Source of the DNA: Candidatus Woesearchaeota archaeon
GTDB lineage: Archaea; Nanobdellota; Nanobdellia; SCGC-AAA011-G17; GW2011-AR18
Length of the DNA stretch: 33,161 nt
Direction of reading: 5' to 3'
Assembly (NCBI GenBank): GCA_964616675.1
Contig: CAZTRI010000027.1
Span: 1-33,161 of the forward strand
The first letter of the stretch is position 1. Every line of letters starts with the position of its first letter. Positions 9,333-9,731 of this stretch are shown piece after piece. The translations under genes and the position numbers were made by a program. The notes beneath the pieces were generated by a model. That model did not search any database and was not told the origin of the DNA. It saw nothing but the letters and a program-made list of their open reading frames with translations.

Positions 9333-9731
9333 CTATCTCCTTCTATAATCTCCAAATATTTCAGCTAACTTTCTTTCAAACATTTGTAATTCTCCTAATT
9401 CTAAACCAAATGCTCCCGGTGATGCAAACTTTAATTCTCTTTCAGATCTTTCTAATCTTTCTTTTAATTCAGAAAGATTAGCCCCCTGTAATATTATTCC
9501 TTCCCCATTCAATAATTGTTTTTTAGATATATCTAAATATATTACATCTTCATGAGGAAACAATTCGACTAAACTTATTACCCTATATTCACGAGGATCG
9601 CAAGTTAATACTGGAGTCTCGTGATCAGCTGAATGTCTCGAATATATCCATCTTGCGTATCTTAAACTATCTCTATTAGGAATCTCTTCAGTTCTATTTG
9701 CTAAGCCATCAAATATTGTCATTTTACACAT
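9333..9731 (-). CDS. Hypothetical 132-aa protein embedded in the gyrB-gyrA operon
   Basis: Start ATG overlaps the gyrB stop by 8 nt; an alternative ATG at 9722 lies 1 nt after that stop. Its TAG stop is 2 nt before the gyrA ATG. No recognisable domain. C-terminus is predicted helical and charged. Confidence 0.7.

Follow-up and report, generated by a model that had tools for sequence, protein, structure and literature searches.

The gyrB and gyrA genes of a Candidatus Woesearchaeota archaeon are separated by a third, tightly packed cistron, an open reading frame (ORF) of 129 codons whose product appears to be an orphan. With a probability of roughly 0.55, we attribute this ORF to a lineage-specific passenger cistron that would occupy a permissive slot of the gyrBA operon, and not to a stoichiometric gyrase subunit. 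This reading is the most economical because the same gyrase works without the ORF in equally close relatives and because the slot takes unrelated enzymes elsewhere. The variable gyrB-gyrA junction in this clade is the more interesting finding, more so than the ORF itself.

All three genes lie on the minus strand of the analysed stretch of DNA (33,161 nucleotides, here called the window). The first cistron, gyrB (9724..11631, minus strand), was present in the ORF list and encodes 635 aa with the Pfam domains HATPase_c, DNA_gyraseB, Toprim and DNA_gyraseB_C (GyrB_C). It is followed by the orphan ORF (9333..9722, minus strand, product P0001) and then by gyrA (6922..9330, minus strand) as third cistron, with a product of 802 aa that contains DNA_topoisoIV and six GyrA_C blades. 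The protein is a genuine gyrase A subunit, with the GyrA box QRRGGKG at residue 518 and the catalytic tyrosine motif RYTE at residue 118. Only 1 nt separates the gyrB stop from the ORF ATG (junction CTG GAT GTG TAA A ATG ACA), and 2 nt lie between the TAG stop of the ORF and the gyrA ATG (AGA AGG AGA TAG AA ATG CCA). The original prediction, a 132-aa ORF packed between gyrB and gyrA, had described the geometry and the junctions correctly; its start has to be shifted to the second ATG. The 132-aa reading (9333..9731) begins at an in-frame ATG further upstream, at 9729..9731 (minus strand) inside gyrB, the equivalent of which is out of frame in L001, the contig that carries the sole homologue. 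Because of this, and because the product P0001 of the gene caller and the homologue P0002 both begin at the second ATG, we assign the gene to 9333..9722, with 129 and not 132 aa. The upstream ATG is thus unlikely to serve as a start.

The window has a GC content of 31%, is ~90% coding and harbors archaeal information-processing genes (Rpo7/RpoE, ribosomal protein S24e, a TrmY-type methyltransferase, SMC and aEF-2). The GyrA proteins nearest to that of the window are labelled Candidatus Woesearchaeota or Nanoarchaeia. Archaeal DNA gyrase was acquired from bacteria and is present in most Woesearchaeota. The tight packing of the ORF is nothing unusual in the window, where gaps of ≤14 nt or overlaps occur at 10 of the 27 gene junctions. 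Further features were noted outside the gyrase locus. A 323-aa protein encoded at 18464-19435 (minus strand), tail to tail with SMC (14998-18462), has a C-terminal bacterial DnaA domain IV helix-turn-helix (PF08299, E=8e-21). At 27087-27223 (minus strand) Rfam detected a 137-nt tRNA (43 bits) that ARAGORN had missed, presumably an intron-containing archaeal tRNA. A Beta-lactamase2-family protein (31743-32699, plus strand, E=5e-43) is encoded in this DPANN-type archaeal contig, and large surface proteins with PKD, Big and FixG_C-like Ig domains (19450-26224) are found near its gene.

Putative ribosome-binding sites are present at both junctions. The codons L-D-V that end gyrB form the Shine-Dalgarno-like sequence GGATGTG (9727..9733, minus strand), which precedes the ORF ATG by 4 nt. 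Likewise, the codons R-R-R at the end of the ORF contain the Shine-Dalgarno-like AGGAG (9337..9341, minus strand), which precedes the gyrA ATG by 6 nt; the counterpart of AGGAG in L001 is weaker (AGGACAAGA). In most relatives examined, the string (T/C)TGGATGT(N)TAA/TGA precedes gyrA, or whichever gene comes after gyrB, with L086 and L088 diverging from it. Behind this string, up to and including the stop, the ORF ATG takes the place of the gyrA ATG of those relatives in which the site is empty. A possible archaeal TATA box, TTTATAT, is located at 11668..11674 (minus strand), ~40 nt upstream of the gyrB ATG; judged from sequence only, it would be the candidate sole promoter of the three-gene unit. 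A scan for sigma-70 promoters and terminators returned nothing above shuffled sequences, with a bacterial model that is not applicable to an archaeon.

Since the ORF has neither a promoter of its own nor a spacer, it would most likely be transcribed from the gyrB promoter. Translation may occur by coupling or re-initiation at the ATG that lies 1 nt after the gyrB stop, behind GGATGTG. At the other end, the last codons of the ORF (AGAAGGAGATAG) would supply the AGGAG 6 nt before the gyrA ATG, and the translation of gyrA could be coupled as well. The co-transcription and coupled translation proposed initially are in line with the position of the ORF inside the gyrB-gyrA unit and with the geometry of the junctions, although such packing is also the norm of this genome.

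Several properties of the ORF show it to be a genuine protein-coding gene under purifying selection. The chance of 129 codons staying open at the base composition of the window is ~3e-5, and the other five frames of the insert contain 3-17 stops in the window copy and 3-21 in the L001 copy. Its GC content at the three codon positions (GC1/GC2/GC3 = 0.43/0.37/0.16) and its codon-adaptation score of 0.74 are both typical of window genes. The homologue P0002, 129 aa in length and 62-64% identical to P0001, is encoded on the 1.7-kb ENA metagenome contig L001, where its gene (L001:69-458) follows the terminal 21 codons of a gyrB and precedes the initial 427 codons of a gyrA, each at a distance of 2 nt. 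At the nucleotide level the two copies share ~76% identity; both are intact and their three indels all comprise whole codons. In the comparison of the window with L001, dN/dS of the ORF is 0.47 overall (pS > pN, z = 2.7), as against 0.18 for the adjacent gyrA. A value near 1 had been named beforehand as grounds for giving up the gene, and the values from this two-member comparison, 0.47 overall and 0.15 in the core, speak for it.

Constraint is distributed unevenly along the protein. Residues 1-21 show a dN/dS of 0.95, i.e. neutral evolution, and the charged, helical residues 62-129 one of 0.58. Between them lies a conserved core of residues 22-61 (9540..9659, minus strand), which is 85% identical between the two members (alignment A1), has a dN/dS of 0.15 and is rich in His, Asp, Cys, Tyr and Trp. 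The product is acidic (pI 5.5) and hydrophilic and contains a single Cys. We would thus expect a small, acidic, soluble protein with an unconstrained N-terminal tail, a constrained 40-residue core and a charged, helical C-terminal part. Because the constraint on its core matches that on GyrA, the protein has some specific function, albeit one that need not involve gyrase. The synonymous divergence between the window and L001 is lower for the ORF (dS 0.50, a figure from 77 synonymous sites with very AT-biased codons) than for the adjacent gyrA (dS 0.91). This difference may be noise or may stem from a more recent exchange of the ORF.

In the searches described here, the protein is a two-member orphan without a known family. 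Among about 15 billion proteins, P0001 and P0002 were the only members found, in word-indexed searches over 5.8 billion clusters and an exhaustive phmmer search over 1.84 billion representatives. No third member was detected with peptide patterns in genome, metagenome and viral contigs, with a degenerate DNA pattern of an 11-residue peptide of the ORF, or in the contigs of metagenome runs that contain window sequence. Searches of Pfam, NCBIfam and PHROGs returned zero families for both members at E≤10, PADLOC gave for the ORF only a chance-level Cas12a fragment (E=0.05), and nothing significant was obtained against PDB sequences with phmmer or with the A1 profile. The best PDB match of this profile, to residues 76-124, was the HxlR-family protein QsrR, which at E=0.76 is not significant; the ORF ends ~16 residues past the putative recognition helix, and the beta-hairpin wing that goes with the three-helix bundle of an HxlR/PadR-like winged helix-turn-helix would not fit. 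AlphaFold2 gave no confident fold, with pLDDT values of 39 for the two-sequence alignment and 33 for the single sequence. Besides P0002, the phmmer search over the 1.84 billion representatives listed two repetitive proteins, both of which were rejected as relatives. For P0003, with 10 repeats of the 5'-nucleotidase C-terminal domain, the E-value is inflated by the repeats, and for P0004, a pentapeptide-repeat protein of 704 aa, the reported E-value of 1e-5 is a sum over near-identical repeats. The insert was compared by blastn, tblastx and tblastn with the remainder of the window and with every locus and protein retrieved, which revealed chance matches only. An origin of the ORF from duplicated neighboring DNA, or from the remains of a known gene read in a different frame, was discarded on these grounds.

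The gyrB-gyrA junction was then compared among relatives, on the contigs from which the nearest GyrA proteins come (about a dozen junctions). Upstream of gyrB, all of them keep the divergent PIN_9 gene; Rpo7 and S24e are likewise kept where the locus extends that far. The junction is empty in L002, L003, L091 and L092, with 1-2 nt from the gyrB stop to the gyrA ATG. Other relatives carry in this slot a mini-HAD protein of 145-151 aa (L084, L093), a mini-HAD followed by a 60-aa zinc ribbon (L088/L089), a 65-aa ORF with a full HAD_2 hydrolase of 196 aa (L085), or a Tse3/SLT-like (lysozyme-like) protein of 236-268 aa (L090 and L086, 37% identical to each other), to which L086 adds a further ORF of 177 aa. 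These inserts are as tightly packed as the ORF of the window, with spacers of ≤2 nt or overlaps, and sequence comparison showed no likeness between the ORF and any of them.

The window sequence is present as DNA, at ~5x depth, in runs X1-X5 and was found in no RNA-seq run. An empty site was observed in one metagenome run that contains it, X3, which yielded a 207-nt contig of ~85% identity to the window that joins position 9327 directly to position 9720, and the empty junctions of L002, L003, L091 and L092 read like that of this contig. The segment missing in the empty-site form (9328..9719, 392 nt) corresponds to the ORF plus a 2-nt spacer, with 5 nt, AAATG, that fit either side. An interpretation of the AAATG direct repeat as a target-site duplication was dropped; it is merely the spacer plus ATG at both gene starts. 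A spacing of 1-2 nt is most readily seen as the ancestral gyrB-gyrA spacing and as the norm of this compact genome.

Over 391 ungapped columns of the GyrA N-terminus, two relatives with an empty site are 78.8% (L002) and 77.7% (L003) identical to the window, compared with 78.5% for the occupied L001; the more distant empty-site relatives L091 and L092 reach 69-71%. In a neighbor-joining tree of GyrA, occupied and empty genomes are intermixed, with weak support of 56-77%, and a single gain of the ORF in a clade of the window and L001 would still be compatible with this weakly supported tree. Because four relatives have empty sites and others have unrelated genes in the slot, conserved synteny of the ORF seems to be limited to a very narrow lineage. 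Of the conserved synteny anticipated at the outset, the part that stands is the single homologue in the same position between gyrB and gyrA; the empty sites of L002, L003, L091 and L092 and the unrelated genes of other relatives go against the remainder.

Some of the loci of relatives have features of their own. The mini-HAD hydrolases (phosphatases of 145-151 aa) form a family of 13 clusters (alignment A4) with an FDWIGTL motif I that has no second Asp. In four of five contexts the gene is placed exactly between gyrB and gyrA of Woesearchaeota (L084:3556-3999, L088:4001-4453, L089:3776-4228, L093:4001-4447), and in the fifth (L087:4001-4438) it lies outside this slot. The 60-aa zinc ribbon (CPNC...CRDC; L088:4450-4632, L089:4225-4407) is located between mini-HAD and gyrA, and its size and four-Cys pattern recall, by description alone, the gyrase inhibitor YacG. 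The Tse3/SLT-like proteins are encoded at L086:2668-3474 and L090:3289-3999. In L084, a free-standing LAGLIDADG_2 ORF (L084:739-1659) overlaps the start of gyrB, and GyrA (L084:4001-7267; P0009, 1088 aa) is fused to a C-terminal histidine phosphatase (His_Phos_1). Inteins are found in gyrB or gyrA of many relatives, e.g. an insert of ~517 aa in gyrB of L093.

According to the passenger reading, gyrB and gyrA would originally have abutted each other in the operon of a Woesearchaeota-like (DPANN) archaeon, and the ORF would have come to lie between them as a middle cistron that uses the expression signals of a constitutively expressed essential operon. As to its activity, our best guess is that this small protein binds a ligand, a metal or nucleic acid and works without involvement of gyrase.

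The original prediction went a step further, from tight packing to an accessory subunit or regulator of gyrase, and this step is not borne out, given the empty or unrelated slots in relatives. We consider it unlikely that the protein modulates or protects gyrase by binding to GyrA or GyrB, with an operon position that matches its expression to that of the enzyme. The geometry would guarantee co-expression with gyrase, the sole homologue keeps the synteny and the core is under strong purifying selection; moreover, small protein modulators of gyrase constitute a diverse, repeatedly invented class (PMC10886550). However, the same gyrase is found without the ORF in equally close relatives and unrelated enzymes occupy the slot elsewhere. 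The co-occurrence expected of a stoichiometric subunit is not seen, as relatives with ~78% identical GyrA do not have the ORF.

The known types of gyrase modulator give no closer link. As predicted from the sequence of the window, motifs of YacG, pentapeptide-repeat proteins, GyrI, CcdB and ParE are absent, and searches with domain models agree with this. YacG is a four-Cys zinc finger of ~60 aa; the ORF product has a single Cys and gave no Pfam match to it at E≤10. For pentapeptide repeats (Qnr/MfpA/AlbG, tandem A(D/N)LXX units that build a right-handed beta-helix), the Pentapeptide model was without match at E≤10, and one unit (GANLS) but no tandem array could be discerned by eye. The GyrI/SbmC, CcdB, ParE and FicT models, Fic included, had zero matches in Pfam, NCBIfam and PADLOC. 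Pentapeptide-repeat proteins as a class include gyrase-binding DNA mimics, and a pentapeptide-repeat protein, P0004, provides the best non-family match, through one unit of its linker. Residues 35-92 of the ORF (9440-9620) align with the linker TNITCEQIKSAVIDESTLFPDYIY...GKGLDLKGANFS with 37% identity over 62 aa. This linker lies between blocks of pentapeptide repeats, and it is the ORF core and the following 12 residues that align there. Yet the match scores 32.7 bits per unit, and for a single unit at this score thousands of chance matches are expected (Karlin-Altschul estimate from score and library size).

A broader version of this idea, less probable again in our estimation, would have the slot dedicated to interchangeable accessory genes of gyrase or DNA topology. 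The ORF would then encode a modulator of new fold whose His/Asp/Cys-rich core contacts GyrA or GyrB or, in a variant, represent a new class of junction-targeting selfish gene.

The improbable case of a selfish or mobile gene, for instance a divergent free-standing relative of homing endonucleases that targets the conserved gyrB/gyrA junction and is patchily gained and lost, draws on several of the above observations. Presence is patchy among equidistant relatives, and the insert comprises precisely the ORF and 2 nt and lies at the conserved junction of two essential genes. Homing elements do occur at this locus in the clade, as inteins in gyrB and gyrA and as the LAGLIDADG_2 ORF abutting gyrB in L084, and a dS of 0.50 for the ORF as compared to 0.91 for gyrA would fit a later transfer. 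This contrast, however, comes from 77 synonymous sites, with codons that are extremely AT-biased. LAGLIDADG, GIY-YIG, HNH and other nuclease models of Pfam, NCBIfam and PHROGs were unmatched at E≤10, tblastx against the intein-bearing loci of relatives revealed no likeness to the ORF, and no copy was found elsewhere in any collection searched. Codon usage is fully host-like, the AAATG repeat is accounted for by spacer and start codon, and the remaining occupants of the slot are ordinary enzymes.

It is very unlikely that the ORF is a degenerate relic of a mini-HAD gene, catalytically dead and fast-evolving, even though both share the same slot and have comparable lengths (129 versus 145-151 aa). 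The first 15 nt of the ORF (ATGACAAT, with ATTTGAT following the gap) equal the start of the L084 mini-HAD gene minus 12 nt (MTI-FD versus MTIKGIIFD), and MAFFT sets LTCDP...EDVIYLD against the HAD region YLSC...ETVIVDD. Despite these motifs and the N-terminal DNA match, identity as a diverged mini-HAD was rejected statistically. The hhalign probability is 0.3%, the mini-HAD profile scores -1.5 and -1.8 bits in hmmsearch, which 28-45% of shuffled sequences reach, and z-scores of global and local alignments range from -0.2 to 0.65. P0002 has a His where motif IV would require Asp, and a motif III Lys is missing; the features that define the HAD superfamily (motifs I-IV: DxD/DxxGT, S/T, K, DD; a Rossmannoid core; profile similarity) were not recovered in the ORF. 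Moreover, it is empty sites that are found in the closest relatives.

That the ORF is non-functional, open by chance or a decaying insert, is hardly credible in spite of its two members, the neutral N-terminal 21 codons (omega 0.95) and the lack of a confident AlphaFold2 fold. Neither copy is disrupted, at ~76% nucleotide identity and with indels that are all codon-sized, the core has an omega of 0.15 and the GC pattern over codon positions is coding-like. A streamlined genome would also be expected to shed 392 nt without use from an operon that is essential.

If the ORF is a passenger, it is in itself one more orphan gene of DPANN archaea. An essential, tightly coupled two-gene operon could in that case repeatedly take up unrelated cistrons at its stop/start junction, and such repeated filling of the slot fits gene gain by insertion into existing operons in streamlined, promoter-poor genomes. 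A word of caution also follows: tight packing alone is poor ground for inferring a functional partnership. Should the protein act on gyrase after all, it would bring a new fold to that role and, to our knowledge, be the first archaeal protein modulator of gyrase.

In gyrase-bearing archaea, the gyrBA operon is the usual arrangement (PMC9348778), and a keyword search of that paper found no mention of genes intercalated between gyrB and gyrA. The locus of the window resembles this arrangement in that gyrA comes after gyrB on the same strand, with both genes complete, a GyrA box and the PIN_9, Rpo7 and S24e neighborhood, and differs from it by the third cistron placed exactly at the stop/start junction. 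Known modulators of gyrase comprise ParE, CcdB, TsbT, microcin B17, phage peptides, FicT, Qnr/MfpA, YacG, MurI and GyrI; the ORF product shares with them a small size and potential co-expression, and they have many unrelated folds, so that there would be precedents for a further one (PMC10886550). In contrast to these, the ORF has no sequence similarity to any of them and is absent from sister genomes with the same gyrase. We know of none that is a cistron between gyrB and gyrA.

The other occupants of the slot in Woesearchaeota (the mini-HAD proteins of alignment A4, HAD_2, the Tse3/SLT-like proteins and the zinc ribbon) have the same placement and operon context as the ORF, but recognizable domains, of which the ORF has none. 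Among bacteria, Caldalkalibacillus thermarum carries between gyrB and gyrA a 4.7-kb insertion that is described as transport and regulatory genes (PMC7561548). Gaps of ~1-1.5 kb between the two genes are present in L009, L013, L032, L043, L056 and L080 (several of them Paenibacillus and Cohnella); they come from a survey of genome contigs with a GyrA alignment, in which too-conserved peptide patterns retrieved mostly bacteria, and serve as background only. These bacterial insertions are larger and loosely spaced, unlike the single, tightly coupled orphan cistron of the gyrBA operon described here.
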